50,581 nt of DNA from Bacteroidetes bacterium 4572_128 (GTDB taxonomy: Bacteria > Bacteroidota > Bacteroidia > Bacteroidales > 4572-128), in contig NBLL01000001.1 of assembly GCA_002084355.1 (NCBI GenBank), forward strand, positions 1 through 50,581. Direction: 5' to 3'. Below are positions 1,681 through 50,431 of the stretch, piece after piece; position 1 is the stretch's first letter, and every line of letters starts with the position of its first letter. Under the pieces are notes generated by a model. The model searched no databases, had not been told where the DNA came from, and saw only the letters and a list, made by a program, of their open reading frames with translations. The position numbers and the translations under genes are program-made.

Positions 1681-2802
1681 ATGAAAATAGCTGTTAATAC
1701 AAGACTTTTAATAAAAAATAAACTGGAAGGAATTGCTTGGTTTACTTTGGAAACCTTAAAACGTATAACAAAAAAATACAAAGAGCATCAGTTTTATTTC
1801 CTTTTTGATAGAAAATTTGACGAAGAATTTATTTTTTCGGAAAACATTACTCCGGTAATTATTTCTCCACAAACAAGACATCCATTTTTATGGTATATTT
1901 GGTTTGAAAAAAGGCTTCCTAAAATTTTAAAAAAAATAAACCCAGATGTATTTGTTTCTCCGGACGGTTATATTCCTTTAAATATTCCTTTTCCAAGTCT
2001 TTCGGTTATTCATGATATAAATTTTGTACACAGACCAGAGGATTTACCTTTTTTGGTAAGTAAATATTATAATTATTATTTCCCATTATTTGCAAAAAAA
2101 TCCAAAAGAATAGCAACAGTTTCTGAATATTCTAAAAATGATATTGCGAAAGAATTTAAAATTAATAAAGAAAAAATAGATGTTGTTTATAATGGTTGTA
2201 ATATTTTATATAAAAAAGTTTCGTCAGAATTAAAAGAAAAAACGAAAGAGAAATTTTCTTATGGAAAAAATTATTTCATTTTTATAGGAGCAATGCATCC
2301 ACGTAAAAATGTCAAAAATCTTATAATAGCTTTCGATGAATTTAAAAAATCGTATAATTCTGATTTTAAATTGCTTATTGTTGGAAGTAAAATGTTTAAA
2401 AATAAAGAATTAGAAAAAAGTTTTAAAGAACTTTTTTTTAAAAAAGATATTATTTTCACAGGACGCTTATCTGTAAATGATTTAAAATTAGTACTTGCAA
2501 GTGCTTTTGCTTTAACTTTTACTCCTTTTTTTGAAGGTTTTGGCATTCCAATTTTGGAAGCAATGTATTGTGATGTACCTGTAATAAGTTCTAATTTAAC
2601 TTCAATTCCAGAAGTTTGTGGAGATGCAGGAATTTTAGTAAATCCGCACTCTATTGAAGAAATTAAAAATGCGATGATAAAAATTGTAAAAGATAAAAAT
2701 TTAAGAAAAAAACTAATAAAAAATGCTAAAATTCAAAGAAAAAAATTTTCTTGGAAAAAAACTTCTGATAAATTATGGAATAGCATAGAAAAATTGAAAT
2801 AA
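1681..2802 (+). CDS. glycosyltransferase, GT-B fold, family 4-like
   Basis: 373-aa ORF. The C-terminal FFEGFGIPILEAMYCDVPVISS...PEV..DAG block is the E-x7-E region typical of GT4 enzymes. Confidence 0.8.
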   Translation: MKIAVNTRLLIKNKLEGIAWFTLETLKRITKKYKEHQFYFLFDRKFDEEFIFSENITPVIISPQTRHPFLWYIWFEKRLPKILKKINPDVFVSPDGYIPLNIPFPSLSVIHDINFVHRPEDLPFLVSKYYNYYFPLFAKKSKRIATVSEYSKNDIAKEFKINKEKIDVVYNGCNILYKKVSSELKEKTKEKFSYGKNYFIFIGAMHPRKNVKNLIIAFDEFKKSYNSDFKLLIVGSKMFKNKELEKSFKELFFKKDIIFTGRLSVNDLKLVLASAFALTFTPFFEGFGIPILEAMYCDVPVISSNLTSIPEVCGDAGILVNPHSIEEIKNAMIKIVKDKNLRKKLIKNAKIQRKKFSWKKTSDKLWNSIEKLK

Positions 2803-2833
2803 TGAAAAATATATATAAATTGTAATTTTTTTA

Positions 2834-2841
2834 TATTTTTG
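2834..2841 (+). promoter_or_regulatory. Bacteroidota -7 promoter box (TAnnTTTG)
   Basis: Exact TATTTTTG lies 15 nt upstream of the ATG at 2857. It overlaps the TTG at 2839 that the ORF track used as start, which argues for 2857 as the real start. Confidence 0.4.
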
Positions 2842-2856
2842 CTAAAAAAATTTTTT

Positions 2857-5178
2857 ATGAAAAATGTCAAAAATTTTAAATTAAATAGCCAGTTTAATAT
2901 AATTGTAATTTCTTTTTTGATTTTGGTTTTTATAATTTTCGGATATTTTATTTATGATGATTTTGTTACAAAAGCTGAAGAAAGAAAATATAAAAATTTA
3001 AAAAAAGAATTAGAAAATATATGCGATTTTCTAAATTACAGTACTGTAAAAAGAATAGAAAAACTTAATGATTTTCAAAAAATAACACATAAACTTTTTT
3101 ATCAAAATGGAGATATAGAAATTATTGACAGCATAACAACAACTTTTAATGCTTTTAATCAAATAAGCAAAAAATCTCATGAAGTAGAAGTTAATTTATG
3201 GAAACAAAATGGTATATTTTTACAAAAAAGCGATAAATTTATAAATGAAGTTGAAAAATTTGGTGTGGAAACAGTTACTATTTTTCAAAAAATAGATAAA
3301 GGTTTTTTAAGAATTGCAACTAATATTTTAGATGATTTTGGTAATAAAGCTATAGGAACATATATTCCAAACAATTCAATAGTTGTGAAAACATTAAAAA
3401 AAAATGAAACATATAAAGGAAAAGCATTTGTTTTAAATAAATATTATACAACAATTTATGAGCCAATAAAAATAAATAATAAAATTGTAGGTGCTTTACT
3501 TATAGGAATTTCTGAGATAGATTATACTTCAGTAAAAAACTTTTTCGACAAAAGAACCGAAAATAAAAATAAATATCCTTTTCTTGTAAAAAATAATGGA
3601 GAGCTATTAATTCATCCAGATTTTGAAAGTGAAAACATAAGTTCTACAAATTTTTTTAGAAAAGAAATTGAAAAAAATTTAAAAGAGAATTATTTCCAAT
3701 ATTTTTTTCCAGATAACGAATTGGGTTTTGAAAAAACTGCATGCTATAAATATTTAGATAATCTTGATGCTTATGTTTTTATAACTACTTATGACGAAGC
3801 TTTTTATAAAAGGAATCAAAAAACAATGATCTATATTATCTTAATTTTTTCAATTTTTATTTTTTTATTTTTTGTAATTCTTCACATAATTTTTTCTCCT
3901 ATAAAAAAATATATATACTACATATATGATATTATATATGATATTTCACAAGGTAAAATTTTAGATGAAATTAAAAATAAAAATGAAAAATATTTTAATC
4001 TAAAAATTTTAAAACATTTAAATATTTTAATAAAATCTTTAAAAAGAACTTATAAATTTACTCAGGAAATTCAAAAAGGTAATTTTAAAAGTGATTATAA
4101 ATTAATTAGTAAAGATGATGTATTAGGAAAATCTCTAATGGATATGCGAAATTCCTTAGAAAAAGCAAAAAAAGATGCAACTGAAAGAAAGCGAGAAGAT
4201 GATATAAGAAACTGGGAATCAAAAGGGCAAGCAGAATTTTCCGAAATTTTACGTCAAGATAATGATAATTTAAAAAAAATGAGTGAAAATATTATTGTTT
4301 ACATAACAAAATATTTAAAAGCAAATCAAGGAGGTTTGTTTATTATAAAAAATAAAAATAAAAATGATGCTTTTATAGAGCAGATTTCTTGTTTTGCTTA
4401 TGACAGAAAAAGACAACAAAAAAAACGCATTAGAATTGACGATGGACTTCTTGGGCGTTCTGTTTATGAAAAAGAAACAATTTATTTAACAAATATTCCT
4501 AAAAATTATATAAATATTACTTCTGGTCTTGGTGATGAAACACCAAATAATTTATTAATTGTACCTTTGAAATTAAATGAAAAAGTACTTGGTATTTTAG
4601 AACTTGCTTCTTTTAGGATATTTGAAAAATATGAAATTGAATTTTTAGAAAGAGTTGGAGAAAACATTGCTTCTGTAATGAGTTCAGCGCAAACAAATGA
4701 AGAAACAAAAAAATTATTAATCAAAGCAAAAGAACAAGCAGAAATAATGCTTTCTCAGGACGAAGAAATGAGACAAAATTTAGAAGAAATGCAAGCAACT
4801 CAGGATGAAGCAATAAAAAAAGAAAATCTTGCAAAAGGTTTTATAGATTCAGTAAATAATTTTGTTATGCGTGCAAATTTTGATTTGGAAGGAAATATAA
4901 TTTTTGCAAATAAGTTATTTTTAGAAAAATTAGGGTATAAAAAATTTATCGAAATTAAAAATTTTTCATATTATAATTTTTTTGAAAAAAAAGACCTATT
5001 GAAAATAAAGTCTATTGATTCTAGTTTACAAAGAGGTGGAAAATTTTTCGAAGGAACTATTAAACACATAACAAAAAACAATAAATTAATTGATCTTTTT
5101 GTGATTATAAATATAATTAGAGATAAAAATTTTAAACCAGAATATATTTTATTTCTTATAATAGATAAAAAAAATTAA
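2857..5178 (+). CDS. membrane sensor protein: Cache-type periplasmic domain, HAMP, GAF, coiled coil, PAS; no recognisable output domain
   Basis: Two TM segments (IIVISFLILVFIIFGYFIY and MIYIILIFSIFIFLFFVILHIIF) flank a Cache-like block (FLRIATNILDDFGNKAIGTYIP...KGKAFVLNKYYTTIYEPIKINNKIVGALLIGI). A GAF-like region follows (ITKYLKANQGGLFII...LGDETPNNLLIVPLKLNEKVLGILELASF), then a charged coiled coil and a PAS-like C-terminus. Confidence 0.65.
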   Translation: MKNVKNFKLNSQFNIIVISFLILVFIIFGYFIYDDFVTKAEERKYKNLKKELENICDFLNYSTVKRIEKLNDFQKITHKLFYQNGDIEIIDSITTTFNAFNQISKKSHEVEVNLWKQNGIFLQKSDKFINEVEKFGVETVTIFQKIDKGFLRIATNILDDFGNKAIGTYIPNNSIVVKTLKKNETYKGKAFVLNKYYTTIYEPIKINNKIVGALLIGISEIDYTSVKNFFDKRTENKNKYPFLVKNNGELLIHPDFESENISSTNFFRKEIEKNLKENYFQYFFPDNELGFEKTACYKYLDNLDAYVFITTYDEAFYKRNQKTMIYIILIFSIFIFLFFVILHIIFSPIKKYIYYIYDIIYDISQGKILDEIKNKNEKYFNLKILKHLNILIKSLKRTYKFTQEIQKGNFKSDYKLISKDDVLGKSLMDMRNSLEKAKKDATERKREDDIRNWESKGQAEFSEILRQDNDNLKKMSENIIVYITKYLKANQGGLFIIKNKNKNDAFIEQISCFAYDRKRQQKKRIRIDDGLLGRSVYEKETIYLTNIPKNYINITSGLGDETPNNLLIVPLKLNEKVLGILELASFRIFEKYEIEFLERVGENIASVMSSAQTNEETKKLLIKAKEQAEIMLSQDEEMRQNLEEMQATQDEAIKKENLAKGFIDSVNNFVMRANFDLEGNIIFANKLFLEKLGYKKFIEIKNFSYYNFFEKKDLLKIKSIDSSLQRGGKFFEGTIKHITKNNKLIDLFVIINIIRDKNFKPEYILFLIIDKKN

Positions 5179-6587: not shown

Positions 6588-7279
6588 ATGAAAAATAAAG
6601 AAATGTCATTTTTAGGTCATTTGGAAGAATTAAGATGGCATATAATTCGTTCTTTTATAGCTGTTATAATATTGGCAATATTGGCTTTTATTTATAGCGA
6701 ATTTATTTTTGATAATATTATTTTATTTCCAAAAAATCCAGAATTTTTTACTAATAGAATGTTTTGTAAACTCGGACATTTGATGGGGACAGAGAAATTA
6801 TGTATAAATAGTAATCCTTTAACTTTATAAAACCTGCTTTGGAAAAAAAAGAAAAAAAATATACAACAGGTGCAGTATTTTTCACATCTATTCTTTTTAT
6901 GATGGGAGTTTTATTTGGATATTTTTTAATCGTTCCATTGTCTCTTAATTTTCTTGGTTCTTATGTTGTTAGCGACGAAGTTTTAAATCAAATTAATATT
7001 GGTTCTTACATAGATATGATAACTTCAGTAACTCTTGCTTCAGGTATAATTTTCGAATTACCAGTTTTAATTTATTTTTTAAGTAAACTTGGAATAGTAA
7101 CTCCTTCAATATTAAGGAAATATAGACGACATTCTTTAGTTGTTATTTTATCTCTTTCCGCAATAATTACTCCGCCAGATATTTTTAGTCAAATTTTAGT
7201 TTCATTACCTTTATTTATTTTGTATGAATTTGGAATTTTGATTGCGAAAAATATTTACAAAGAAAAAGAAGAACAATAA
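6588..7279 (+). pseudogene. tatC: twin-arginine translocase subunit TatC, disrupted (internal deletion plus frame change)
   Basis: ORF 6588-6830 carries the TatC N-terminus (MSFLGHLEELRWHIIRS...). ORF 6839-7279 carries the TatC C-terminal two thirds (GAVFFTSILFMMGVLFGYFLIVPLSLNFL...) in a different frame. A TAA lies at 6828. From memory of TatC alignments, roughly 40 residues between the two parts are missing. Confidence 0.7.
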
Positions 7280-7282
7280 AAA

Positions 7283-8410
7283 ATTTTTCAAAAAAAACGC
7301 CAATTTTTTATGAATTATTAAAAAAAAAAATTTTTGAAAAATGCCAATTTTTTTATGAATTATTTAAAAAAAAACTTTTTCCAAAAAATGCCAATTTTTT
7401 ATGAATTATTTAAAAAAAAATTTTTTCAAAAAATGCCAATTTTTTTATGAATTATTAAAAAAAATTTTTTCCAAAAAATGCCAATTTTTTGTGAATTATT
7501 AAAAAAAAATTTTTTTCAAAAAAAACGCCAATTTTTTATGAATTATTTAAAAAAAAATTTTTTCAAAAAACGGCGTTTTTTTATGAGTCATTAAAAAAAA
7601 AAAATTTTTTTCAAAAAACGGCGTTTTTTTTATGAATTATTAAAAAAAAAATTTTTTCCAAAAAATGCCAATTTTTTATGAATTATTTAAAATTTTTTTT
7701 CAAAAAACGGCGTTTTTTTATGAATTATTAAAAAAAAAAATTTTTTCAAAAAACGGCGTTTTTTTTATGAATTATTAAAAAAAAAAATTTTTTCCAAAAA
7801 ACGGCGTTTTTTTATGAATTATTAAAAAAAATTTTTTCAAAAAATGCCAATTTTTTATGAATTATTTAAAAAAAAAATTTTTCCAAAAAATGCCAATTTT
7901 TTATGAATTATTTAAAAAAAAATTTTTTCCAAAAAACGGCGTTTTTTTTATGAGTTATTAAAAAAAAAAATTTTTTTCAAAAAAATGCCAATTTTTTATG
8001 AATTATTTAAAAAAAACTTTTTCCAAAAAATGCCAATTTTTTTATGAATTATTAAAAAAAATTTTTCCAAAAAATGCCAATTTTTTATGAATTATTTAAA
8101 AAAAAAATTTTTCAAAAAACGGCGTTTTTTTTATGAGTTATTAAAAAAAATTTTTTCAAAAAATGCCAATTTTTTATGAATTATTTAAAAAAAAATTTTT
8201 CCAAAAAACGGCGTTTTTTTTATGAGTTATTAAAAAAAAAATTTTTTTCAAAAAAATGCCAATTTTTTTATGAGTTATTAAAAAAAAATTTTTTTTCCAA
8301 AAAACGGCGTTTTTTTATGAATTATTAAAAAAAATTTTTTTCCAAAAACGCCAATTTTTTATAAATTATTAAAAAAAATTTTTTCCAAAAACGCCAATCT
8401 TTTATGAATT
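7283..8410 (+). repeat. tandem array, 25 units of about 45 bp, A/T-block repeat family (array A1)
   Basis: By hand count there are 25 head-to-tail units of ATGAATTATT, A8-10, T6-8, C(C)A6, a core, then T6-8. Core states are TGCCAA (12 units), CGGCG (9) and CGCCAA (4). Confidence 0.9.
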
Positions 8411-8488
8411 TAAAATTAATTTTTTATTGTAACTACAAGGGATATAATAATCATAAGACATTTGAACACTTATAAGAGTAGATTATGA

Positions 8489-8830
8489 TTATATTTCGTT
8501 TTTAATTAAATCTTTAATAAAAGTTATGTTTACATTTTTTTTCTCTGATTTATCGTAAATATGTAAAAGATAAATTTTGAAATCTTCTGTAATTTTATAC
8601 ATTATAATTCTTGCTCCTCCGCTTTTTCCTTGACTTTTGCTTTTTATTGCTAAACGCAATTTAAAAATATTAGATTTTATTTCTACACTATTTTTTAAAT
8701 TTTCTTCTAAATTATTAATAAAGTTTCGTAAATCGCTTTTCAAAGACTTATGTTTTTTAAACAATCTTTTTACATTTTTTTCAAAAGTATTGGAATAACT
8801 AACTTGATATTTTTTATTCATTATTCCCAA
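8489..8830 (-). CDS. RelE/ParE-superfamily type II toxin
   Basis: 113-aa ORF with the characteristic ...FKLRLAIKSKSQGKSGGARIIMY...LLHIYDKSEK block of addiction-module killer/RelE-like toxins. It overlaps the upstream ORF by 10 nt. Confidence 0.65.
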   Translation of the reverse strand: MGIMNKKYQVSYSNTFEKNVKRLFKKHKSLKSDLRNFINNLEENLKNSVEIKSNIFKLRLAIKSKSQGKSGGARIIMYKITEDFKIYLLHIYDKSEKKNVNITFIKDLIKNEI

Positions 8831-9294
8831 TTTTCAAACAATTCTTCTATAGGTTTAAACTCTTTTTCCCCTGCTTCTAATGCTTTCAATTCTTTAAAAG
8901 CATTTGTTAAACTTTCTGTTAATTCATCTTCTTGTTCTTTTTTTAAGTTCAAATATTCATCTATTTTTATTAATAAATTTTTATTTTCATATAGTTTTCC
9001 AAAAAATATAAAAGAAGGAATTTCTTTATAAAGTTCATTAATTTTTTTAATATCAAAATGTAAACTTTTACAATTTTTATAATATAATTTTCTAATATTT
9101 GAAAAATATTCTTTGAAAAAAATATTTTGTTCTTTGATTTGTTTTCTTTTTAAGAGATAATAAAAAGGTAATATCAAAGAATATATAAAAATAGAAAATA
9201 CATTCCAAAGACCTTTTTTAAATTTTCTAATGTATAAAAAAAAACTGTATTCTAATTGCAAATTAATTTGCTTTTGATTTAAAATATTTTCCAT
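8821..9294 (-). CDS. hypothetical protein with a TM segment; possible cognate antitoxin
   Basis: 157-aa ORF translationally coupled to the toxin. It has a hydrophobic segment (VFSIFIYSLILPFYYLL) and an acidic C-terminal tail (ESLTNAFKELKALEAGEKEFKPIEELFENWE) resembling small antitoxin C-termini. No family recognised. Confidence 0.35.
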   Translation of the reverse strand: MENILNQKQINLQLEYSFFLYIRKFKKGLWNVFSIFIYSLILPFYYLLKRKQIKEQNIFFKEYFSNIRKLYYKNCKSLHFDIKKINELYKEIPSFIFFGKLYENKNLLIKIDEYLNLKKEQEDELTESLTNAFKELKALEAGEKEFKPIEELFENWE

Positions 9295-9525
9295 CTTGAA
9301 TAAAATTAATAATTATTAATAATAAAACGATTTTTAATTAAAAAGATTTTTCATATATTATACAAATATAAATAATCTTTTTATTAAAAAAAATTTTTTT
9401 AATAAAAATTTGTTCATTACATTACACAATCATTGATTTTTAACTACGTTTTATAAAAAAAAAATTTTTTATAAAAAATTTTCGTAAAATGCAATTTTAT
9501 TTTTTAAAATTTTAATATTTGTTAT

Positions 9526-13943: not shown

Positions 13944-14590
13944 ATTTAAAAAAAAAAAATTTTTTTTAAAAATGACCAAATTTTTAATTTTTAAAAAATG
14001 CCATTTTTTTTAATTTAAAAAAAAATCAAGATATAGAAACCTAATTTTTATTTTTTTCTTAATTTTTTTCTTCAATTTTTTTTTTTTAATAATTAAAAAA
14101 ACATAAAATTTTAACATTTTTTCTTCAAATTTTTTTTTAATAATTCAAAATCATAAAAATTTTAGTATTTTTTCAAAAAATTTTTTTTTTTAATAATTAA
14201 AAGCATAAAAATTTCGGCATTTTTTAAAAAATTTTTTTTTAATAATCATAAAAATTTCGGCGTTTTTTTGAAAAAACTTTTTTTATTATTATAAAAAAAT
14301 CATTAAAATAATTGGTTTTTTTGAAAAATTTTTTTTTAATAATTCAAAATCATAAAAATTTCGGCGTTTTCTTGAAAAAATTTTTTTTAACATTGTAGGT
14401 TAAAAAAAACCTCCAATGTTGTTTTTTTTAAAATATTAAAATTTTGGACGTTTTTTGAAAAAAATTTTTTTTATTGAAAATTAAAATATTTGAAATTTTG
14501 GACGTTTTTTGGAAAATTTTTTTTAAATTGAAAATTAAAATATTTAAAATTTTGGACGATTTTTGAAAAAAAATTTTTTTTTAATAAATT
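13944..14590. repeat. A/T-block repeat family, mixed-orientation array (A2)
   Basis: Forward units lie at 13944-14020 (cores TGACCAAA, TGCCATT). Reverse-oriented units run from about 14040 (CATAAAAATTTCGGCG..., TAAAATTTTGGACG...TTGAAAAAAA). Confidence 0.8.
14389..14420. repeat. AACATTGGAGGTT palindromic element, degenerate copy
   Basis: AACATTGTAGGTT, an A run, then AACCTCCAATGTT. One arm mismatch relative to the copies at 22.4 kb and 43.9 kb. Confidence 0.75.
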
Positions 14591-20251: not shown

Positions 20252-20935
20252 AATTAAAAAAAATTTTTTTCAAAAATCGTCCAAAATTTTAATGTTTTTT
20301 TTAAATTGAAATTCTAAGTACACGACAAAAGTTTAAAAATGTTTATTTTTACTTTTTTTGCTGTGTTTAATAATTGATTTGTAATTTGATTTAATCCGAA
20401 ATAAATATTGTGATTTCTTTTCTTTTATGTTTTTTAGTTTTTATTTTTTTTCCATTTTTGGATGTTTTAATGATTTTTTAAAATTAAAAAAAAATTTTTT
20501 TTTCAATAAAATGCGGATTTTTAATGATTTTTTAAAATTAAAAAAAAATTTTTTTTTCAATAAAATGCGGATTTTTTAATAATTTTAAAATTCAATAAAA
20601 TGCGGATTTTTTAATAATTTTAAAAATTGAAAAAAAATTTTTTTTTCAATAAAATGCGGATTTTTAATGATTTTTTAAAATTGAAAAAAAATTTTTTTTT
20701 CAATAAAATGCGGATTTTTAATGATTTTTTAAAATTAAAAAAAAATTTTTTTTTCAATAAAATGCGGATTTTTTAATAATTTTAAAATTTTAAAATTAAA
20801 AAAAAATTTTTTTTTCAATAAAATGCGGATTTTTTAATAATTTTAAAAATTAAAAAAAAATTTTTTTTTCAATAAAATGCGGATTTTTTATTATTTTAAA
20901 ATTAAAAAAAATTTTTTTTTAATTAAAAAATTATA
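20252..20935 (+). repeat. A/T-block repeat family array (A3), private core TGCGGA
   Basis: One CGTCCAAAATTTTAATG unit at about 20275, a non-repeat island at about 20300-20455, then 8 units of ...A8-9 T9 CAATAAAATGCGGATTTTTAATGATTTT.... Spacing is mostly 54 bp (ATGCGG at 20511, 20565, 20600, 20654, 20708, 20762, 20823, 20877). Confidence 0.85.
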
Positions 20936-22335: not shown

Positions 22336-22900
22336 AACATTGGTGTTAAAAAAAAAACTCCAATCCAGTGTTAAAAAATTTTTTTCAAAAATCGCCCAAA
22401 ATTTTAAGATTTTTAAAAAAACAACATTGGAGGTTTTTTTTTAAACCTCCAATGTTTGATGTCGAAACATTGGAGGTTAAAAAAAAAACCTCCAATGTTT
22501 TATTTGAATTAAAAAAAATTTTTTTGAAAAAAATGTCCAAAATTTTAAGATTTTTAAAAAAACAACATTGGAGGTTTTTTTTTAAACCTCCAATGTTTGA
22601 TGTCGAAACATTGGAGGTTAAAAAAAAAACCTCCAATGTTTTAAAAAATTTTTTTTTCAAAAAAACGTCCAAAATTTTATGATTTTTTATTTGAATTAAA
22701 AAAAAATTTTTTTTCAAAAATCGTCCAAAATTTTAAGATTTTTTATTTCAATTAAAAAAAAATTTTTTTTTCAAAAAATGCCTAAAATTTTAATGTTTTT
22801 TAATCTCAAAATTAAAAAAATTTTTTTCAAAAAACGCAATTATTTTAATGAATTTTATAATTAAAAAAAAAAAATTAAATTTGTTTTTTTATAAAAAATT
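22336..22900 (+). repeat. composite repeat region (A4): A/T-block units plus paired AACATTGGAGGTT palindromes, with a 141-bp tandem duplication
   Basis: The double-hairpin module at 22423-22500 is repeated at 22564-22641, an offset of exactly 141 bp. A degenerate copy lies at 22336-22372. A/T-block units with cores CGCCCAAAA, TGTCCAAAA, CGTCCAAAA, TGCCTAAAA and CGCAATTA follow, up to 22875. Confidence 0.85.
22876..22883 (+). promoter_or_regulatory. -7 promoter box (TAAATTTG) for the ATPase operon
   Basis: Exact TAnnTTTG, 22 nt upstream of the ATG at 22906. Confidence 0.4.
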
Positions 22901-24627: not shown

Positions 24628-26679
24628 ATGATAACAAATAATTTTTTCCAAGATTTTGATTTTCAGATTTTAAATTCTAATGATTTCAAAGAAGATGCGG
24701 TTAGAGAAGAATTAATTAACCCTATTTTAAAAAAATTAGGATATAAGGCTTACGGAAATAATAGAATAATTTACAGTAAAACGCTTTCACATCCTTTTGT
24801 AAAAATAGGCTCGGGAAAAAGAAAAATAAATATTATTCCAGATTATTTATTTTCTGTAAATGACCAATATACTTGGGTACTTGACGCAAAAGCTCCAAAT
24901 GAAAAAATTATAAATAGTGATAATGTTGGGCAAGTTTATTCTTATGCAATTCACCCAGAAAGAAAAAGAACCATTATTATTTTTTCAGCTTAACAAAATT
25001 GATAAACACTGGAACGAAATACAAAAATTATTATCTCCGGATATTTTTACAGAAAAACAAATTAAAAAAAAAGAAAAAAAAGAAGAAAAGAAAAATAATA
25101 ATTTTAATTATTTAGATTGTAAATTACCGAAATCTATTAAAGTAAAAAAACAAGCTGTAAAACGACATTATGGCGTACATGGTTATTTTACAAGACAAAG
25201 TTGGGATATTTTACAACATTATATTAAAAATTTCACCAAAAAAGGAGATCTTATTTTAGATAGTTTTGCCGGAACCGGAGTAACTGCGATAGAGGCTTTG
25301 ATGCTCGAAAGAAAAGCAATTAATATAGATTTAAATCCGATGGTTATTTTTTTAACTAAAGCTTTAACTATTCCTGTTGATTTCGAAATTTTACAAAAAG
25401 AATTTGAAATAATAAAAATTGCTTTTGAAAAAGATTGTCCAGAAACAAATGAAGAAATTGAAATTTCTTTAAAAAAATACCCCTTTCCTCAAAAAAAAAT
25501 TTTTTCTAAAGGTGCTGATGTAAAAGATGTAGAATATTTTTAACATTTCATAACTCAAAAAGAGGAGGAGGTCATCCAGGAGCATTTCGTTATTATCGTT
25601 ATCGTATTGCTCCAAATCCATATTTATTAGATTTATCTTCACTTTTTGTTTCTCGTTATAAAAAAATTATAAAAGCGAAAAAAGAGATTTTACCTTTTAT
25701 TAATAAAAAAACGATAAAAAATTTACAAATTTACAAAGGTAGTGCTACGAATTTAGAAAAAATAAAAAATGAAAGTATTGACTATATTTATACTGACCCC
25801 CCTTATGGCTCAAAAATACATTATTTAGATTTGTCTGTAATGTGGAATGCTTGGCTTGATTTAGAAGTCAGCGAAAAAGACCGCAATTTAGAAGCAATAG
25901 AAGGCGGAAGTAAAAATAAAAGCAAAGATGAATATGCCGAATTACTGCAAATTTCTATTAAAGAAATGTATAGAGTTTTAAAATTTAATCGTTGGATGTC
26001 TTTTGTTTTTGCTCATAAAGACCCACATTATTGGCATATAATTGTAGATACTGCCCAGAAATGCGGTTTTGAATATATTGGCGTTGTGAAACAATCCAAT
26101 GGACAAACGAGTTTTAAAAAACGTCAAAATCCTTTTTCGGTTTTGTCTGGTCAATTAATTATTAATTTTATCAAAAAAGAGCGTCCTTTATCAATTAATA
26201 AAATTAAATTAGGTGAGATTTATGATTTGGTTATAAATACTATAGAAAATATTATAGCCACCAATGACGGAGCTACCATAGAAGAAATTAATGATGAGTT
26301 AATTATCATGGGTTTAGAACATGGTTTTTTGCATATTTTAAGCAAAGAATATAAAGATTTAACGCCGATTTTGGTTTCAGAATTTGATCATAACCAAGAA
26401 ACAGAAAAATTTTATATTCGTAAAAACAGCAAATTTAAAAGTAAAATACCTTTAGATATGCGTATTAAATATTTTCTTTTTTCTTATTTTAAACAAAAAG
26501 AACGAGAAGATATTTATCCGACAACAGATAATATAATTTTGGATATTATGCCGCTTCTACAAAATGGAATTACTCCGGATGATCAAACAATTTTAATTAT
26601 TTTACGTTCCTTAGCAAATCCAATGAAAGATAATAAATGGAAATTAAAAGAAAAAGACCAGATAAAAATTTTTTTTTGA
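24628..26679 (+). pseudogene. PD-(D/E)xK (HsdR_N-type) nuclease-like domain fused to an N6A/N4C DNA methyltransferase; at least 2 frameshifts
   Basis: The gene is read in three frames: 24628-24993, 24917-25543 and 25519-26679. The N-terminus is EDAVREELINPILKKLGY...IPDYLF...WVLDAKAP (HsdR_N-like with PD...DAK). Motif I is LILDSFAGTGVTAIEALMLERKAINIDLNP. Motif IV is IYTDPPYGSKIHYLDLSVMWNAWL, reached only by reading the frame upstream of the called ORF at 25831. Both shifts lie in A/T homopolymer contexts. Confidence 0.7.
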
Positions 26680-26950
26680 AAAAACGGCGATTATTTTAAT
26701 GATTTTTGATAATTAAAAAAAAATTTTTTCCAAAATTCGTCCAAAATTTTAATGTTTTTAAAATTTAAAATTAAAAAAAATTTTTTTTCAAATTCGTCCA
26801 AAAATTTAATGTTTTAAAAATTAAAAAAAATTTTTTCAAAAAAATGACCAAAATTTTAACATTTTTAATTTCGAAAATAAAAAATGTTAAAATTTTTTTT
26901 CAAAAAAATGACCAAAATTTTCAATTTTTTTAAATGTTCAGAATGTCAGA
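26680..26950 (+). repeat. A/T-block repeat family array (A5)
   Basis: Five units with cores CGGCGATTA, TTCGTCCAAAA, TTCGTCCAAAAA, TGACCAAAA and TGACCAAAA. The array begins at the methyltransferase stop codon. Confidence 0.85.
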
Positions 26951-28129: not shown

Positions 28130-28294
28130 ATTTAAATCGTCAAAATTTTCAATTTTTAACGAAAAAAATTTTTCCAAAAAAACGCCCAAAATTTTAACAT
28201 TTTAATTTAGAGTTAAAAAAATTTTTTCAAAAAAATGACCAAAATTTTAACATTTTAATTTTGAAAAAATTTTTTCAAAAAAATGACCAAAATT
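28130..28294 (+). repeat. A/T-block repeat family array (A6)
   Basis: Units with cores CGTCAAAA, CGCCCAAAA, TGACCAAAA and TGACCAAAA. Confidence 0.8.
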
Positions 28295-29242
28295 TTATAA
28301 TTTATTTTTTAATAAGTTATCAAAATAATTTATTGTTTTTATCAAACCTTCTTCCAACTGAATTTTTGGTGCCCAGTTATTTAGATTTTTTTTTGCTAAT
28401 TTAATATCTGGTTTTCTTTGCATAGGGTCGTCTTTTGGCAAAGGAAAATAAGTTATTTTAGAATTAGAATTTGTCAATTTTATAACTTTTTTAGCTAATT
28501 CCATAATGGTAAATTCATTAGGGTTTCCAATATTTACAGGACCAATAAATTCATCATTAGTATTCATCATTCTTATCATTCCTTCAACTAAATCGTCCAC
28601 ATATTGAAAACTTCTTGTCTGCAAACCATCACCGTAAATGGTAATATCTTCATTTTTTAAAGCCTGAATGATAAAATTAGAAACTACTCTACCATCTTTT
28701 TTATGCATACGAGGTCCATAAGTATTAAAAATTCTAACAATTTTAATTTTGACATTGTTTAATTGGTGATAATTCATAAATAAAGTTTCCGCACATCTTT
28801 TGCCTTCGTCATAACAAGCACGCAAACCAATAGGATTTACATTTCCCCAGTAACTTTCTTTTTGTGGATGAACTTTTGGGTCTCCATAAACTTCACTTGT
28901 TGAAGCTTGTAAAATTTTTGCTTTTTTTCGTTTAGCAAGTCCAAGCATATTTATCGCTCCCATTACAGAAGTTTTTACTGTTTTTATGCCGTTTTCTTGA
29001 TAATGAATTGGAGACGCTGGACAAGCTAAATTATAAATTTGTTCAACTTCTGCATAATATGGCATAATAATATCATGTCTAACTAATTCAAAATAAGGAT
29101 ATTTTAATAAATGAACAATATTTTTTTTGTCTCCGGTAAAATAATTATCTAAACAAATAATATCATTTCCTTCGTTCAATAATCTTTCGCAAAGGTGCGA
29201 ACCAACAAAACCAGAACCACCAGTAATTAAAATTTTTTTCAT
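28295..29242 (-). CDS. UDP-glucuronate decarboxylase (UDP-xylose synthase-like SDR)
   Basis: [33 protein letters not shown], catalytic YDEGKR, overall UXS-type sequence. Confidence 0.85.
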
Positions 29243-30018
29243 AATACAAATTTATTTTTTTTTTATTATTTAAAATAAAAAATTTTTTTTCAAAAAATGG
29301 CAATTATTTTAAGATTTTTTTCAAAAAAATGACAATTTTTTAATGATTTTTTATAATTAAAAAAAAATTTTTTTTCAAAAAACGTCCAAATTTTAATGTT
29401 TTTCAAATTAAATTAAAAAATTTTGGCTATCGAACCTTTTTGTGGAGGGAAATTTTTTCATAATAAAATTGTGAAAAATTTGTGTTTTTTTTTTAATATT
29501 TTTTAAAATTTTTTATTTCAAATCGTCACTAAAGCATTAAAAATCAATGCTTTGTAAAAAGATGCAACGAAATCATCGTGGACGATGAATCATTTTGTGT
29601 CCAAAATTTTAATATTTTTAAAATTAAAAATAAAAAAAATTTTTTCAAAATTCGTCCAAAAATTTAATGTTTTTAAAATTAAAAATAAAAAAAATTTTTT
29701 CAAATTCGTCCAAAAATTTAATGTTTTTAAAATTAAAATTTAAAAAAAAATTTTTTTCAAATTCGTCCAAAAATTTAATATTTTTTAATTTCAAAAATAA
29801 AAAAAATTTTTTTCAAATTCGTCCAAAAATTTAATGTTTTTAAATTTAAAAAATTTTTTTTTCAAATTCGTCCAAAAATTTAATGTTTTTAAAATTAAAA
29901 TTTAAAAAAATTTTTTTTTTGAAAAATCCAAATATTTTTTAATCTCAAAAATCCAAATATTTTAATATTTTATTTCAAAAATAAATTTTTCAAAATTGCG
30001 TTTTTTTTTAATGTTTTT
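29243..30018 (+). repeat. A/T-block repeat family array (A7), interrupted by about 200 bp of unique sequence
   Basis: Units at 29283-29400 have cores TGGCAATTA, TGACAATTT and CGTCCAAA. Unique sequence at 29401-29600 contains a half copy of the 63-bp palindrome at about 29570-29595. Five units of about 57 bp carrying TTCGTCCAAAAATTTAAT lie at 29650-29885. Degenerate units follow to 30018. Confidence 0.85.
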
Positions 30019-32952: not shown

Positions 32953-33012
32953 AAATATTTTTTTGCAAAATAATAATTTTTTATTTTTATAAAAAAAACG
33001 CCATTTTTTCAA

Positions 33013-33360
33013 AAAATATTTTTCAAAAAAACGCTAAATTTTTAATGATTTTAAATTAAAATTTTTTTATTTGAAATTATTAAAAAAAAATTTTCCAAAA
33101 ACGCCAAAATTTTTAATTTTTATTTCAAAAAATATTTTCCAAAAAACGCCAAAATTTTCAATTTATTTAAAAAAAAATTTTTCCCAAAAACGCCAAAATT
33201 TTTAATTTATTTAAAAAAATATTTTTCCAAAAAACGCCAAAATTTTTAATTTATTTAAAAAAATATTTTCCAAAAAAACGCCAAAATTTTTGATTTTTAT
33301 TTCAAAAAAAATTTTTCCAAAAAACGCCAAAATTTTCATGATTTTATTTTTCAATAAAAA
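33013..33360 (+). repeat. A/T-block repeat family array (A8), core CGCCAAAA
   Basis: Seven units of about 45-55 bp: ...TTTTTCCAAAAAACGCCAAAATTTTTAATTTATTTAAAAAAA.... Confidence 0.85.
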
Positions 33361-35856: not shown

Positions 35857-36140
35857 ATTTTTTATTTTTAATTATAAATTTTTAATCAACATTATTAAAA
35901 AAATTTTTATGCTTTGATATTTGATTTATCAAGTTCGTATAAAATTTGTTTTCGTAAAGTATTTGCATCTATTTCTAACATTTTATATAATTAAAAAAAA
36001 ATTAAAATAAAAACGACATAATAATTTTTATTTTAAATTTTAAAAATTATTTTTTTTTTTCAAAAATTGCATCTTTTTTATAAAATAAATTAAAAAAAAA
36101 CGTTAAAAAAATTGAAAAAAATTTAATAATTTTAATTTTT

Positions 36141-36170
36141 TTCTGCACTTGCGGTATTTTTACCGCACAT
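36141..36170. repeat. G/C-containing hairpin element, copy 1 (related to 43786-43820)
   Basis: TCTGCACTTGCGGTATTTTTACCGCACATATTATT. The stem is TGCGGTA/TACCGCA. It shares the CTGC.C..TGCGGT.TTTT.ACCGCACAT.ATTATT frame with the copy at 43.8 kb. Confidence 0.6.
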
Positions 36171-36179
36171 ATTATTCAT

Positions 36180-36330
36180 AATTTCAAAATTAAAAAAATT
36201 TTTTTCAAAAATCATTCAAAATTTTAAATTTTTTAAATCAAAATAAAAAAATTTTTTTCAAAATTCGTGAAAATTTCAATATTTTGATTTAAAAATAATT
36301 TTTCAAAATTCGTGAAAAATTTAATATTAA
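36180..36330 (+). repeat. A/T-block repeat family, three degenerate units (A9)
   Basis: Cores TCATTCAAAA, TTCGTGAAAA and TTCGTGAAAAA, each followed by TTT(C/T)AA(A)T. Confidence 0.6.
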
Positions 36331-39525: not shown

Positions 39526-40980
39526 TTGAAAAAGAAATTTGTTATTAATTTAATTTTGTTAGTTTTTATAAATTTATTGATAAAACCTTTCTGGGTTTTT
39601 GGCATAGATAGAAGCATTCAAAATCTCGTAGGAGCAGAAGAATATGGTCTTTATGCTTCTATATTTAGTTTTTCATTTTTATTAAATATAATTCTGGATT
39701 TGGGAATTACAAGTTTTAATAACAGAAATATTTCTCAACATAAACAATTATTAAGTAAACATTTTTCAAATATTGTTATTTTAAAATTCCTACTTGGAGT
39801 TTTATATTTTTTAATAAGTCTTATAATTGCAATTTTTATAGATTATAATTATAGACAATTAGAACTATTTTTATTTCTCGGTTTCAACCAATTTTTATTA
39901 TCTTTTATTTTATATTTACGTTCTAATATCGCTGGTTTACAATTATTTAAAACAGATAGTTTAATTTCTGTTCTGGACAGAAGTTTGATGATTTTATTTT
40001 GCGGAATTTTACTCTGGGGAAATTGCACAGATATAAATTTCAAAATTGAATGGTTTGTTTATGCACAAAATATTTCATATTTAATTACTGCCGTTGTTGC
40101 TTTTTTTATAGTTTTTTTGAAATCAAAATTTTTAAAATTAAATTTCAATAGAAAATTTTTCCTTGTAATATTAAAAAAATCTTATCCTTTTGCGATACTT
40201 TTTTTATTAATGGGAGTTTATACGAGAGTTGATATTGTTATGATAGAAAGACTTTTAATAGACGGAAAATTACAAGCAGGAATTTATGCACAATCTTTTA
40301 GAATACTTGACGCAGCATCAATGTTTGCATTATTATTTTCAAGTTTACTTTTGCCAATGTTTTCAAAGATGTTAAAAAACAAAGAAAATGTTGGCGAATT
40401 AACAAGATTATCATATAAAATTTTAATTGCGCCCGCAATTATGATAGCTGTAATTTCTTGGTATTTTAAAATTGAAATTTTAGAAATGCTTTATAATGAA
40501 CATATAAAAAAATCGTCAGAAATTTTTGGAGTTCTAATGATGAGTTTTGTTGCAATCGCAACGACGAATATTTTCGGAACTTTATTAACAGCAAATGCAA
40601 ATTTAAAAGCATTAAATTTAATGGCTGCTTTTGGAATGTTTACTAATTTTATTTTGAATTTTATTTTGATACCAAAATATCAAGCACTTGGAGCAGCAAT
40701 TGCAAGTTTAATAACACAATTTTTAACCGCTTTTATACAAATTTTCATTGCAAATAATAAGTTCAAAGGAAAATTAATTAATAAAAAAATGTTTTTTTAT
40801 ATTTTAATTTTTACTTTGGTAATATGTTTTTCAGGAGGAATTATTTATAATTTAGAAATTGAAAATTGGCTAATAAAAGTTGTAATTTTATCTGTTCTTG
40901 GAACAATTCTTTATTTATTTATGTTTTTTTCTAAAAAAATAATTTTAAAATTGTTAAAAAAAAATAATTTATTTCAATAA
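39526..40980 (+). CDS. polysaccharide/oligosaccharide flippase (MOP/Wzx-like)
   Basis: 484 aa with about 12-14 TM segments and the polysaccharide-biosynthesis-protein pattern. Confidence 0.65.
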   Translation: MKKKFVINLILLVFINLLIKPFWVFGIDRSIQNLVGAEEYGLYASIFSFSFLLNIILDLGITSFNNRNISQHKQLLSKHFSNIVILKFLLGVLYFLISLIIAIFIDYNYRQLELFLFLGFNQFLLSFILYLRSNIAGLQLFKTDSLISVLDRSLMILFCGILLWGNCTDINFKIEWFVYAQNISYLITAVVAFFIVFLKSKFLKLNFNRKFFLVILKKSYPFAILFLLMGVYTRVDIVMIERLLIDGKLQAGIYAQSFRILDAASMFALLFSSLLLPMFSKMLKNKENVGELTRLSYKILIAPAIMIAVISWYFKIEILEMLYNEHIKKSSEIFGVLMMSFVAIATTNIFGTLLTANANLKALNLMAAFGMFTNFILNFILIPKYQALGAAIASLITQFLTAFIQIFIANNKFKGKLINKKMFFYILIFTLVICFSGGIIYNLEIENWLIKVVILSVLGTILYLFMFFSKKIILKLLKKNNLFQ

Positions 40981-40983
40981 AAA

Positions 40984-42313
40984 ATGAGAGAAATTTTAAT
41001 AAAAAATGCAAAAATTTTAATAAAAAATGAAGGAAATTTTAATAAAAAATGCAAAAATTTTAATGAAAATAAAATTTTTTCCGGAGACGTTTTTTTAAAA
41101 GATGAAAAAATAGAAGATATTTTTTTAAAAAAAAACGGCAAATATTCAAAAAAAAATTTTTCAAAAGATATTTTGGAAATAGATGCTTCGGGAAAATATT
41201 TAATTCCGGGAATTATTGACACACACGTACATTTTAGAGATTTTAAAATCTCTGAAAAAGGAACTATAGAAACAGAATCTAAGGCAGGAATTGCGGGAGG
41301 AGTTACTTCTTACATAGAAATGCCCAACACAGACCCTCCGACGGTTTCTATAAAATCTTTGAATGAAAAATTTCAAATTGCTTCGGAAAAATCATGGTCA
41401 AATTATTCTTTTTACATAGGTGCAACAGATGATAATTTTGACGAAATTTTAAAAATTAATCCTAAAAAGATTTGTGGAGTAAAAGTTTTTCTTGGTTCTT
41501 CTACGGGAAATATTATTGTAAAAAACAAAGAAATTTTGAAAAAAATTTTTTCTTTACCTTTTTTAATTGCCGTACATTGTGAGGACGAAGAAATTATAAA
41601 AAAAAACGAGATTTTTTATAAAAAAAAATTTGGTGAAAATATTGATATAAAATATCATTCTAAAATTAGAAGTGAAGAGGCTTGTTTTAAATCGTCTTTT
41701 TTTGCGGTAGAAATGGCAAAAAAATATAATACAAGATTGCACATTAAGTGAAGTTTGTTTACATCATTTATTTTTTGACGAAAATGATTATTTTGATAAA
41801 AAAGGAAGAATAAAATTAAATCCCTCTATAAAAACGTGTAAAGATAAAAATGCTTTATTTAATTCTGTAAAAAACGGAAAAATAGATGTCATTTCAACAG
41901 ACCATGCTCCGCATTTGTCAGAAGAAAAAGAAAATTCTTATTTTAAATGTCCATCAGGTTCTCCTTTTATACAACATTCACTCATTGCAATTTTAGAAAA
42001 ATATCATAAAAAAGAGATTTCTCTTGAAAAAATAGTTGAGAAAATGGCTCACGCACAAAGTGATATTTTTAATATTTATAAAAGAGGATACATTAAAAAA
42101 GGATATTTTGCAGATTTAGTGCTTTTAGATTTATCAAAAAAATGGACGGTAAATAAAAAAGATATTTTATATAAATGTGCATGGTCTCCATTGGAAAATG
42201 AAATTTTTTCTTCAAAAGTTACGCACACTTTTGTAAATGGAAATTTAATTTATGAAAATGGAAATTTTTATAAAAAAATTAAAGCAAAAGCTTTAGTTTT
42301 TAAAAAATCATAA
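40984..42313 (+). pseudogene. pyrC: dihydroorotase, internal deletion plus frame change; also carries a 5' repeat expansion
   Basis: ORF 40984-41751 has IPGIIDTHVHFRD and AVHCEDEEII. From 41750, in another frame, the sequence reads EVCLHHLFFDENDYFDKKGRIKLNPSIKT...IDVISTDHAPH and continues into ORF 41915-42313. The segment between ...RLHI and EVCLHHL is missing. Confidence 0.75.
40990..41064 (+). repeat. 21/22-bp tandem repeats inside the 5' end of pyrC
   Basis: AAATTTTAATAAAAAATG(C/A)A occurs three times, plus a fourth diverged copy. A 32-bp perfect direct repeat lies at 40990-41021 and 41033-41064. The net effect is a 42-nt in-frame insertion (IKNEGNFNKKCKNF). Confidence 0.85.
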
Positions 42314-42400
42314 AATTTTGGACGAATTTTGAAAAAAAATTTTTTTTATTTTAAAATTAAAAAAATTAAAATTTTGGTTATTTTTTGAAAAAAAATCAAA
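42314..42400 (-). repeat. A/T-block repeat family, two reverse-oriented units (A11)
   Basis: ATAAAATTTTGGACGAATTTTGAAAAAAAATTTTTTTT and TTAAAATTTTGGTTATTTTTTGAAAAAAAA. Confidence 0.6.
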
Positions 42401-48224: not shown

Positions 48225-48281
48225 TTTTTTTTTAAATTTTTGCAAATTAAATTTTTTTTTTTTTATAAAAAAAAAAATTTT

Positions 48282-50395: not shown

Positions 50396-50431
50396 AAATT
50401 CCAATTTTTAAAAAAATTGGAATTTTTTTTT
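50396..50431 (+). terminator. rho-independent terminator after dnaN
   Basis: AAATTCCAATTTTT / AAAAATTGGAATTT palindrome followed by a T9 run, 4 nt after the stop. Confidence 0.55.

Follow-up and report, generated by a model that had tools for sequence, protein, structure and literature searches.

The tandem array at positions 7278-8414 of the analysed window, a 50,581-nt stretch of DNA from an uncultured Bacteroidales species of ~22% GC, is one of at least 12 related arrays in this window and of hundreds in the species, and exceeds all the others in size. On balance, it probably belongs to a dispersed minisatellite, non-coding and specific to this lineage, which has expanded further here than at any other locus. 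No role can be made out at the RNA, protein or regulatory level. The locus had originally been described by itself; since it has many relatives, the question moves from a single locus to a repeat family. The array and its surroundings are laid out as follows.

6588-7279, + strand: tatC, left flank, lacking 106 nt at 6820/6821 (Pfam TatC)
7278-8414, + strand: 25-unit tandem array (TRF, unit parse, base-identical independent assemblies)
7278-7319, + strand: unit 1, CGCCAA core (unit parse)
7501-7547, + strand: unit 6, CGCCAA core (unit parse)
7913-8007, + strand: units 15-16, block copy 1, a CGGCG unit with ATGAGT followed by an A7-TGCCAA unit (edit distance)
8186-8279, + strand: units 21-22, block copy 2 (edit distances 1 and 3 to units 15 and 16)
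8327-8414, + strand: right-edge units 24-25, CGCCAA core (top family-HMM scores)
8489-8821, - strand: gene for a 110-aa RelE-like toxin on the right flank (Pfam PF06296, 29.9 bits, E=7e-7)
8821-9294, - strand: 157-aa gene, partner of the RelE-like gene and upstream of it (no Pfam match)
9445-9515, + strand: one isolated, degenerate unit of the family, past the two-gene cassette (read by eye)

The TRF check proposed for the 1.1-kb array returns a single array there (7278-8410, period 46, 24.8 copies, score 1340). An independent unit parse gives 25 head-to-tail units of ~46 bp (range 42-49 bp) over 7278-8414, built on the plan A8-12, T5-8, C(C), A5-8, core, T6-8, ATGARTTATT. The first unit begins on the tatC stop codon and the last one is degenerate. 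The core counts of the original prediction, obtained by hand, are reproduced exactly by this parse, with 12 TGCCAA, nine CGGCG and four CGCCAA. The latter core is indeed confined to units 1, 6, 24 and 25, three of these four units lying at the array ends. The rare variant A-run-C-T5-CC, said to recur, is found in precisely two units (7355-7400 and 7998-8043). The proposed link between ATGAGT and the CGGCG core needed rephrasing: only two of the five ATGAGT copies lie inside CGGCG units as first phased, and the motif goes with the preceding core, since four of the five are directly downstream of CGGCG. A derivation of CGGCG by inversion of the core through its A6/T6 arms was considered and dropped, being not more parsimonious than three substitutions. 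The suggested higher-order structure is real, if modest. Units 13 and 20 have the same sequence, and the two-unit block 15-16 is duplicated as 21-22, with rare variants in common and edit distances of 1 and 3, compared with an array mean of ~7. The units are contiguous, leaving no unique spacers, and no ORF of 60 aa or more was found, in keeping with the initial description, the longest reaching 50 aa (8176-8328). As a warning for annotation, gene callers do place ORFs of 30-50 aa inside the arrays.

The 7278-8414 array is real and not an assembly artefact, because contigs from other samples or assemblers reproduce its sequence exactly over stretches of 313-928 nt. Starting at the tatC stop and reading rightwards, two contigs are identical to the window over 928 nt (L174) and 674 nt (L177); leftwards from the RelE-side flank, three others are identical over 635 nt (L169), 613 nt (L167) and 313 nt (L165). 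The left-anchored and right-anchored sets overlap by ~376 nt, and the matching contigs stem from at least four other samples or assemblers, with every homopolymer length in agreement. Mis-assembly of low-complexity reads, which would have created the array or set its length, is suggested by the numerous short-read contigs of the species that stop inside family arrays, by N gaps that public scaffolds show within further arrays and within the MAG version of the present one, and by the divergence of the L167 contig from the window past its 613 identical bases. Given the concordant contigs, their overlap and a distinctive, non-uniform order of units, this explanation is extremely improbable. A copy from another strain, L081, shows unit-level differences from the window at the same locus, including one unit indel; its identity is 93.8% at the array, compared with 96.8% over a 4.9-5.5-kb syntenic stretch elsewhere.

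Related arrays are spread along the window, and the arrays of the family together make up 9.6% of its bases.

14079-14582, - strand: related array, period 51-54, between convergent genes (TRF, family search)
20256-20928, + strand: one family unit, then a 54-bp-period array with core CAATAAAATGCGGA, downstream of atpC
22373-22876, + strand: stretch where family units and a 34-bp hairpin repeat are interspersed, followed by an array of 56-bp period
26664-26934, + strand: related array, 5 units
28162-28297, + strand: related array, 3 units
29277-29979, + strand: two related arrays, period 53-55
33012-33350, + strand: related array between two divergent genes, with core CGCCAAAATTTT and period 44
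36181-36298, + strand: related array, 2 units
42300-42347, - strand: single family unit
43669-43922, - strand: family units, period 51
50421-50581, + strand: related array, period 53, running past the window end

In the window and in loci of same-species MAGs, 712 family units forming 218 arrays were found in 531 kb; the resulting density of ~1.3 units per kb comes from loci picked for containing the repeat, which biases absolute frequencies upwards. The units are ~90% A+T, with A-runs and T-runs and only 5-6 G/C-bearing positions, and follow the consensus A8 T7 C A6 CG(T/C)CC A4 T4 AAT... Their length varies from 44 to 57 bp, with two modes at 46-47 and 55-57 bp. As detected by the family profile, arrays hold 1-19 units, the 7278-8414 array being the largest. 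Every array carries its own variants, and arrays differ between strains by whole units; the one at 20256-20928 is among those that vary. The 7278-8414 array is a locally diverged subfamily of this dispersed intergenic repeat. The family itself appears confined to one species among the GTDB species representatives: all non-chance matches returned by three scans of these representatives belong to a single MAG, JAOZVH01. The subfamily pattern matches only the same locus in GTDB and JGI metagenomes, and TRF (period of at least 25, at least 2.5 copies) detected no comparable array around atpD in 79 related Bacteroidota. The literature on low-GC Bacteroidales MAGs yielded nothing useful.

The family is present, as head-to-tail arrays, in a large share of intergenic regions. 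It is strictly intergenic, the three sole cases located inside a gene involving spurious or unconfirmed ORFs. Arrays adjoin gene 3' ends and keep clear of 5' ends: the median distance is 44.5 nt to 3' ends and 83 nt to 5' ends (p=1.3e-5), and ~18 of 102 3' junctions touch or overlap the stop codon. Within this set of loci, which was picked for the repeat, arrays are present in 56% of the intergenic regions between convergent genes, compared with 23-29% for the other classes. This enrichment also fits a role at 3' ends, which counts against a purely neutral reading. Orientation shows no bias, either relative to flanking genes (30 same, 33 opposite) or, for arrays abutting 3' ends, relative to the upstream gene (24 same, 26 opposite). 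A replication-strand bias was also considered, but the agreement between neighbouring arrays (58 vs 40, p=0.085) is not convincing.

Adjacency to stop codons and frequent location between convergent genes, a pattern known for REP sequences (PMC3184786), would be expected if the arrays were transcribed and acted as terminators, mRNA 3' stabilisers or small RNAs. Such an RNA-level role is nevertheless very improbable. Arrays show no preferred orientation to the upstream gene, and folding energies are no better than those of dinucleotide shuffles on either strand (MFE z-scores of -0.54 and -0.84). Any stem would be made of A:U pairs only; the array contains no terminator-like sites or hairpins and no G+C-containing hairpins, and Rfam 15 gives no match at gathering threshold over the whole window. 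A terminator or structured RNA was discarded on these grounds. A promoter array was likewise rejected, sigma-70-like sites showing no excess (24, compared with 25.4 +/- 6.3 in shuffles). The -7 box of Bacteroidota has the consensus TAnnTTTG. This box is absent from the 7278-8414 array and is not enriched in family arrays, which hold five of 100 boxes in 9.6% of bases.

With a wedge model checked on A5N5, A4T4 and T4A4 controls only, the predicted local curvature of the 7278-8414 array reaches 37.6 degrees per 31 bp, compared with a window mean of 23.7 and with 24.7 +/- 2.0 in dinucleotide shuffles. This is the highest sustained value in the window, and the array provides 10 of the top 25 200-nt curvature bins. 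In this model, the order of the blocks would thus give more curvature than composition alone, which counts against a neutral reading. In the core, the G/C positions are 72-94% conserved across more than 700 units despite the strong AT pressure of the genome, while positions beside them vary freely (the N of CGNCC, consensus position 37). Such conservation could mean constraint, for example a putative protein-binding site, and would then count against neutrality; it could equally reflect recent spread plus detection bias.

Both features have their place in an architectural interpretation, where phased A/T blocks would impose a fixed bend per unit and the G/C core would be a putative protein-docking site. 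The docked protein could be nucleoid-associated or lineage-specific, and arrays at gene ends could provide insulation, either topological or at the level of transcription, or could take up supercoils. A DNA-level role would be strand-symmetric, which would account for the missing orientation bias. The enrichment in convergent regions, the arrays adjoining 3' ends and the difference of about one helical turn between the two unit-length modes (46-47 and 55-57 bp) are also consistent with it. Several observations argue in the opposite direction. The curvature estimate depends on a wedge model checked on three control types only. Moreover, this model predicts no curvature for the large family array at 20460-20928 (24.4 degrees), and predicted end-to-end compaction is unremarkable (0.84-0.88). 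The family occurs in one species-level lineage, whereas one would rather expect a core function of the chromosome to be older, and close strains differ in the length and presence of arrays. An architectural role is thus a tentative proposal, considered unlikely. Its most elaborate version appears quite unlikely: a functional satellite DNA, in which bend and docking core CGNCC would recruit a lineage-specific architectural protein at 3' ends, insulate adjacent genes or cassettes, topologically or transcriptionally, and place ~10% of the chromosome under selection. There, ~46 and ~56 bp would both correspond to whole helical turns plus about one third, so that three units would complete one superhelix turn.

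The original prediction placed the array between a broken tatC and a toxin gene. The tatC gene is indeed broken in the window, but public assemblies of the same locus encode an intact TatC of 265 aa; a public scaffold otherwise 100% identical here has 106 extra bases at window position 6820/6821. The break is a window-specific 106-nt deletion. An alternative genetic code could be ruled out as its cause, the stop being a TAA followed by a frame change. The RelE-like gene is convergent with tatC, and the same gene is called in 14 public contigs. Beyond its partner gene, the degenerate unit at 9445-9515 includes a weak nhmmer match at 9455-9478. No tRNA or tmRNA was found in the window.

Hundreds of dispersed loci require some seeding mechanism. 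The units could belong to a non-autonomous mobile element, either as the internal tandem module of a MITE- or BOX-like element or as the substrate of a REP-type transposase or site-specific recombinase, an enzyme that would spread them and employ them as cassette boundaries. Among the accessory or defence-like genes of the window, the RelE-like pair, DUF2442/PIN, AAA_15 plus methylase and Fic are each bracketed by arrays; one strain difference consists of a ~800-nt two-gene insertion bounded by family units, and the array in L081 has a different left flank. However, the junction in L081 crosses a run of 100 Ns in the scaffold and could have been wrongly joined. In the flanks inspected, array ends carry neither terminal inverted repeats nor conserved head or tail modules, and units run head to tail rather than alternating. 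A Pfam scan of 40 window ORFs revealed no transposase or integrase domain. Viral, plasmid and phage collections gave no match (0 for the family pattern in IMG/VR; none by blastn against plasmids and phages, where the low-complexity filter may blunt the search). A mobile element is thus judged decidedly improbable.

The best reading takes the family as a dispersed minisatellite specific to one lineage, of the same kind as MIRU or boxB arrays. MIRU and other bacterial minisatellites are direct tandem repeats of 40-100-bp units, found at many intergenic loci of one lineage with strain-variable copy number (PMC5056196, PMC3184786). The present family compares well, with direct tandem units of 44-57 bp at dispersed intergenic loci and unit-level strain differences. 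MIRU are otherwise G+C-rich, occupy ~40-50 loci in a fixed orientation to the transcription of adjacent genes and contain small ORFs overlapping flanking genes (PMC5056196, PMC3184786). The family, in contrast, has no orientation bias and no ORF of at least 60 aa; most of its spacings (46, 47, 55 and 56 bp) are not multiples of 3, and it is far denser in the selected loci. Given its ~90% A+T, homology to mycobacterial MIRU seems implausible. The pneumococcal boxB is also a tandem module in variable number at dispersed intergenic sites of one species group, larger arrays varying more, and unequal crossover and slippage have been invoked as mechanisms (PMC3049150). The likeness extends to the restriction of the family to one species. 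BOX elements are, however, flanked by boxA and boxC modules that carry terminal inverted repeats, and have a predicted RNA fold (PMC3049150), whereas family arrays begin at unique DNA or degenerate units, with no shared head module and no predicted fold better than that of shuffles. This flank inspection drew on 80-nt flanks extracted for 107 arrays, the upstream flanks of 60 being read by eye.

REP sequences measure about 35 nt, lie in alternating orientation within clusters and have an associated RAYT (Y1) transposase. They are abundant, extragenic, biased to convergent regions and 3' ends, associated with recombination and bound by the architectural proteins IHF and gyrase; they are G+C-rich imperfect palindromes (PMC3184786). 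The family shares their extragenic location and, in the selected loci, their enrichment at 3' ends and convergent regions. It differs from REP and BIME by its A/T blocks with a 5-6-nt G/C core, by the absence of a G+C-rich stem and by the head-to-tail order of all 25 units in the 7278-8414 array. The contiguous units differ from CRISPR repeats, between which lie unique spacers of similar length, and no cas domain was detected by Pfam in the 40 window ORFs; neither TIRs nor recurrent flanking duplications, as in MITEs, were seen in the flanks inspected. Along with the negative Rfam, virus, plasmid and phage searches, these observations agree with the initial statement that the unit is not a described REP, BIME, MITE or CRISPR repeat. 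A-tract-rich satellite DNA of eukaryotes forms long head-to-tail arrays, up to megabase blocks, with subtypes, higher-order blocks and less homogenised edges. By analogy, subtypes, higher-order blocks, less homogenised edges and predicted A-tract bending make the family resemble a bacterial "satellite DNA". Unlike eukaryotic satellites, its arrays reach at most ~1.1 kb between single genes of a bacterial chromosome, and no centromere-like role is implied.

The minisatellite reading also offers a plausible account of array growth. The family displays within-array homogenisation, block duplication and strain copy-number polymorphism, as expected of minisatellites: units of one array share 85% identity, those of different arrays 80% (73% and 63% at variable columns). 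Arrays would gain and lose units through replication slippage and through unequal recombination among them. The initial suggestion of such local duplication fits the identical or near-identical non-adjacent units, the duplicated block and the unit differences of L081, the mechanism itself being deduced from these patterns. Slippage and unequal recombination would then homogenise interior units and replace them, here by the TGCCAA and CGGCG types, while edge units would retain an ancestral CGCCAA type. That older variants persist at the edges, as first proposed, gains independent support from the CGCCAA core being closest to the genome-wide family consensus, and from units 24 and 25 scoring highest, by a small margin (24.2 and 25.6 bits), against a family HMM from which this array had been left out. 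Neither an RNA nor a protein would be produced from the units, which would not require any sequence-specific function. Selection would act on the location of arrays only, leaving them in place at gene 3' ends and purging them from coding sequence and from DNA close to promoters. There would be two by-products: DNA that is intrinsically bent and melts easily, and extra homology, leading to rearrangement and broken short-read assemblies. The cell may or may not use the strong bending predicted by the model.

It is unusual for satellite-like tandem DNA to occupy about a tenth of a region in a bacterial chromosome, since bacterial genomes are normally compact. The fragmentation of MAGs in this species is explained by the many contigs that stop in family units, and the arrays provide ready-made VNTR markers for strain tracking. 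If the bent-DNA or protein-binding reading were true, the family would represent a new kind of chromosome-organising element. For work on how minisatellites arise and homogenise in a prokaryote, and on their edge effects, the family provides a clean natural system.

The window is part of a bacterial chromosome of about 22% G+C, with genes for glutamine synthetase, SHMT, TatC, LpoB, a TonB-dependent receptor, ATP synthase beta and similar ones. Its AtpD shares 99% identity with that of 'Bacteroidales bacterium GMC9.metabat2.18' (JAOZVH01), a same-species MAG with 96.8% DNA identity to the window, the next relatives lying at about 80%.

The tandem array between tatC and the RelE-like gene (the 7283 array) is returned by TRF as a single call (7278-8410, period 46, 24.8 copies, 82% matches), with by far the strongest score in the window (1340). 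Cutting the region at its ATGARTTATT anchor yields 25 cores, in units of 42-49 bp that read A8-12, T5-8, C or CC, A5-8, core, T6-8, ATGARTTATT. The array of about 1.1 kb and 25 units described in the original prediction is thus borne out, and the hand counts of its cores match exactly: TGCCAA in 12 units, CGGCG in 9 and CGCCAA in 4, namely units 1, 6, 24 and 25. The rare variant said to recur in two units (A-run-C-T5-CC) is indeed found at 7355 and 7998. As also claimed, the array contains no unique spacers between units and no ORF of 60 aa or more, the longest reaching 50 aa. Public annotation includes ORFs of 30-50 aa inside this array (L167, a GenBank metagenome contig, 2768-3328; L169, a JGI contig, 658-810), which are almost certainly spurious.

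The proposed link between CGGCG cores and a sequence variant holds for ATGAGT, since four of its five occurrences directly follow a CGGCG core. A unit is thus best delimited as starting at the A-run and ending with ATGARTTATT, so that the variant goes with the core upstream of it; this corrects the unit phase first adopted. The higher-order structure is real but modest: units 13 and 20 are identical, and units 15-16 share rare variants with units 21-22 (edit distances 1 and 3, for a mean of about 7).

Both the SHMT and the RelE-like protein of the flanks are found in many public contigs. That the array was produced by the assembly appears very improbable, being contradicted by base-identical contigs of other samples and studies that enter it from both flanks, a check made here with public contigs. 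Rightwards from the tatC stop codon, identity to the window extends over 928 nt in L174 (a second sample's scaffold, to its end) and 674 nt in L177 (a SPAdes-style contig of another study); leftwards from the RelE-side flank, it covers 635 nt in L169, 613 nt in L167 and 313 nt in L165 (a MAG contig). The two sets share about 376 nt, with all homopolymer lengths in agreement, and the simplest reconstruction would be the array of 25 units.

Elsewhere, four short internal stretches of the public scaffold DOMB18-1...scaffold_416 are missing from the window, in surroundings otherwise 99.4-100% identical:

window 6820/6821, 106 nt, tatC
window 24960 and 25539, 59 nt and 121 nt, 743-aa N6/N4 methylase
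window 30775/30776, 83 nt, DUF1015

These three genes look frameshifted or split in the window alone. A sensor gene split in the window encodes 853 aa in the same scaffold. Conversely, the 20460 array, sequenced in the window, is interrupted by an N gap in this scaffold.

The 7283 array belongs to a family dispersed over the window, in which TRF and a loose regular expression detected the following related arrays:

14079-14582, minus strand
20256-20928
22373-22876
26664-26934
28162-28297
29277-29979
33012-33350
36181-36298
42300-42347, minus strand
43669-43922, minus strand
50421-50581

Family arrays cover 9.6% of the window. Over 531 kb, made up of the window and MAG loci of the same species, the family profile (consensus AAAAAAAATTTTTTTCAAAAAACGTCCAAAATTTTAATATTTTTTAATTT) detects 712 units, in arrays to which it assigns 1-19 units each, the 7283 array being the largest. 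Its runs of A and T, its C15 and its CG.CC core reach 72-100% conservation, and free variation is seen at the core's middle base and at position 37. That the G/C core is conserved in a genome this rich in A+T may reflect either youth or constraint. Units are most often spaced 55-57 bp apart, with a second mode at 46-47 bp. Units are more alike within than between arrays (85% vs 80% overall, 73% vs 63% at variable columns), and the 7283 array is a diverged subfamily, with a shortened unit, a ATGAATTATT tail and altered cores. Of its cores, CGCCAA comes nearest to the family consensus, and the best scores against a profile built without this array go to units 24-25. The edges thus appear ancestral, as had been proposed; the evolutionary reading offered at that time was largely right, although too local for one member of a genome-wide family.

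Using a simple ORF-based gene call, family arrays are strictly intergenic, the three sole 'inside' cases involving spurious or unconfirmed ORFs. They are found in tandem, convergent and divergent regions, with occupancies of 56% for convergent regions vs 29% and 23% for the others, of which only the ratios are meaningful because the loci were picked for containing the repeat. Arrays often reach the stop codon itself (many distances are 0, the median being 44.5 nt) and keep further from start codons, at a median of 83 nt (p=1.3e-5). Their orientation follows that of flanking genes in 30 cases and opposes it in 33 (24 vs 26 for arrays at most 40 nt from a 3' end), with a weak concordance along contigs (58 vs 40, p=0.085). 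Between 20.2 and 33.4 kb the layout is cassette-like, accessory or defence-like genes each being bracketed by family arrays, without any integrase:

DUF2442 and PIN-like gene
AAA_15 ATPase, 90-aa ORF and N6/N4 methylase
Fic/DOC
epimerase, likewise bracketed
NUDIX-DUF1015-LRR block, likewise bracketed

An action of the arrays through RNA is highly unlikely: four units fold no more stably than dinucleotide shuffles on either strand (z = -0.54, -0.84), and Rfam gives no match anywhere in the window. In the 7283 array, sigma-70-like sites are as numerous as expected from shuffles, and neither terminator-like hairpins nor the Bacteroidota -7 box, which is not enriched in the family, were found. Common unit lengths of the family are not multiples of three. 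Terminator, sRNA, promoter, MITE/BOX-type and ancient functional elements are all disfavoured, since the arrays show neither an orientation bias nor RNA structure, have no terminal modules and lack a wider taxonomic spread.

An architectural role in the DNA is somewhat unlikely. A dinucleotide wedge model (Bolshoy-Trifonov parameters; sanity controls A5N5, A4T4 and T4A4) predicts for the 7283 array the highest sustained local curvature of the window, with 37.6 degrees per 31 bp for a window mean of 23.7 and 24.7 +/- 2.0 for its dinucleotide shuffles. The predicted end-to-end ratio of 0.84-0.88 is unremarkable in terms of compaction, which fits bends that would spiral rather than add up in one plane, and no curvature is predicted for another large array of the family (20460-20928).

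Comparison with the MAG reveals variation between strains. In L081, a MAG locus 3% diverged (JAOZVH010000024.1, 1-1000), the portion of the array on the RelE side shares 93.8% identity with the window and carries an additional TGCCAA unit; beyond a 100-N scaffold gap within it, the array adjoins a 313-aa ORF absent from the window instead of tatC, either through a rearrangement with its breakpoint in the array or through a scaffolding misjoin. At the MAG locus L103 (JAOZVH010000192.1, compared with window 20303-20460), two extra units and an insert of about 800 nt with two small ORFs, all absent from the window, follow downstream of atpC, the difference beginning exactly where a shared unit ends. 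Among the matches listed, many MAG contigs end less than 70 nt from a family unit, and N gaps lie inside family arrays in public scaffolds. That the units are substrates of a mobile element or recombinase is improbable: no common terminal module or inverted repeat was seen among the array flanks inspected, IMG/VR has 0 matches to the family pattern, and plasmid and phage collections give none.

Other repeats lie nearby. A perfect 34-bp hairpin, AACATTGGAGG-(T/A)9-12-CCTCCAATGTT, has about 7 copies in the 531 kb examined and could act as a terminator in both directions or be REP-like:

22423-22640, 4 copies, interleaved with family units (22.4-22.6 kb)
43929-43962, 1 copy
14410-14418, further entry

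A palindrome, TCATCGTGGACGATGA, and a motif, CACAAAAAGGTTnnnAGnnCC, recur next to arrays (8 and 22 matches, both strands, 531 kb), with sites at window 29573-29588 and 29425-29444 (minus strand) and in MAG loci L109, L133 and L134. A G+C-containing hairpin (GCGGTATTTTTACCGC) followed by ACATATYATTCATAATTTCAAAAT stands directly upstream of arrays at two unrelated loci (window 36140-36190; L109, about 7640). Two tandem repeats are unrelated: a 21-nt unit x4.6 (ATTTTAATAAAAAATGCAAAA) at 40971-41069, at the junction of two ORFs, and a 66-nt period x2.4 at 47606-47762, on the minus-strand ORF 47457-48245, which probably encodes a repetitive protein.

The subfamily pattern matches, among GTDB representatives, the same-species MAG alone at the same locus and, in JGI metagenomes, only two contigs, both of that locus. 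Two family patterns gave at least 82 and at least 60 stretches in GTDB scans, those listed coming from JAOZVH01 except five single matches without arrays (Chryseobacterium 3, Planctomycetaceae 1, Thermodesulfobacteriota 1). No comparable tandem array was found in 79 related Bacteroidota atpD loci.

With direct tandem repeats in the range of 40-100 bp, scattered over intergenic loci and polymorphic in copy number, the family is closest in kind to MIRUs (PMC5056196, PMC3184786), but their fixed orientation and overlapping ORFs are not seen here. Pneumococcal BOX elements also come close in their boxB arrays (PMC3049150), but the boxA/boxC ends and the RNA folding of BOX have no counterpart here. 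The bias towards 3' ends and convergent genes is shared with REP/BIME, whose G+C-rich palindromes are lacking, as are MITE ends and CRISPR spacers, in keeping with the original prediction, in which the unit was not recognised as a described REP, BIME, MITE or CRISPR repeat.

The 7283 feature is real, as yet unnamed and specific to its lineage, and the tests made here revealed no function for it. A minisatellite dispersed within one lineage agrees with the data, and a neutral or selfish one is the reading towards which we lean. Arrays would grow and shrink locally, each drifting to its own variant while its edges keep the ancestral form, and selection would clear them from coding and promoter-proximal DNA. 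The family is filed as a new one in a known class, the interspersed tandem repeats of bacteria, and stands out by its design in A/T blocks and its very high density.
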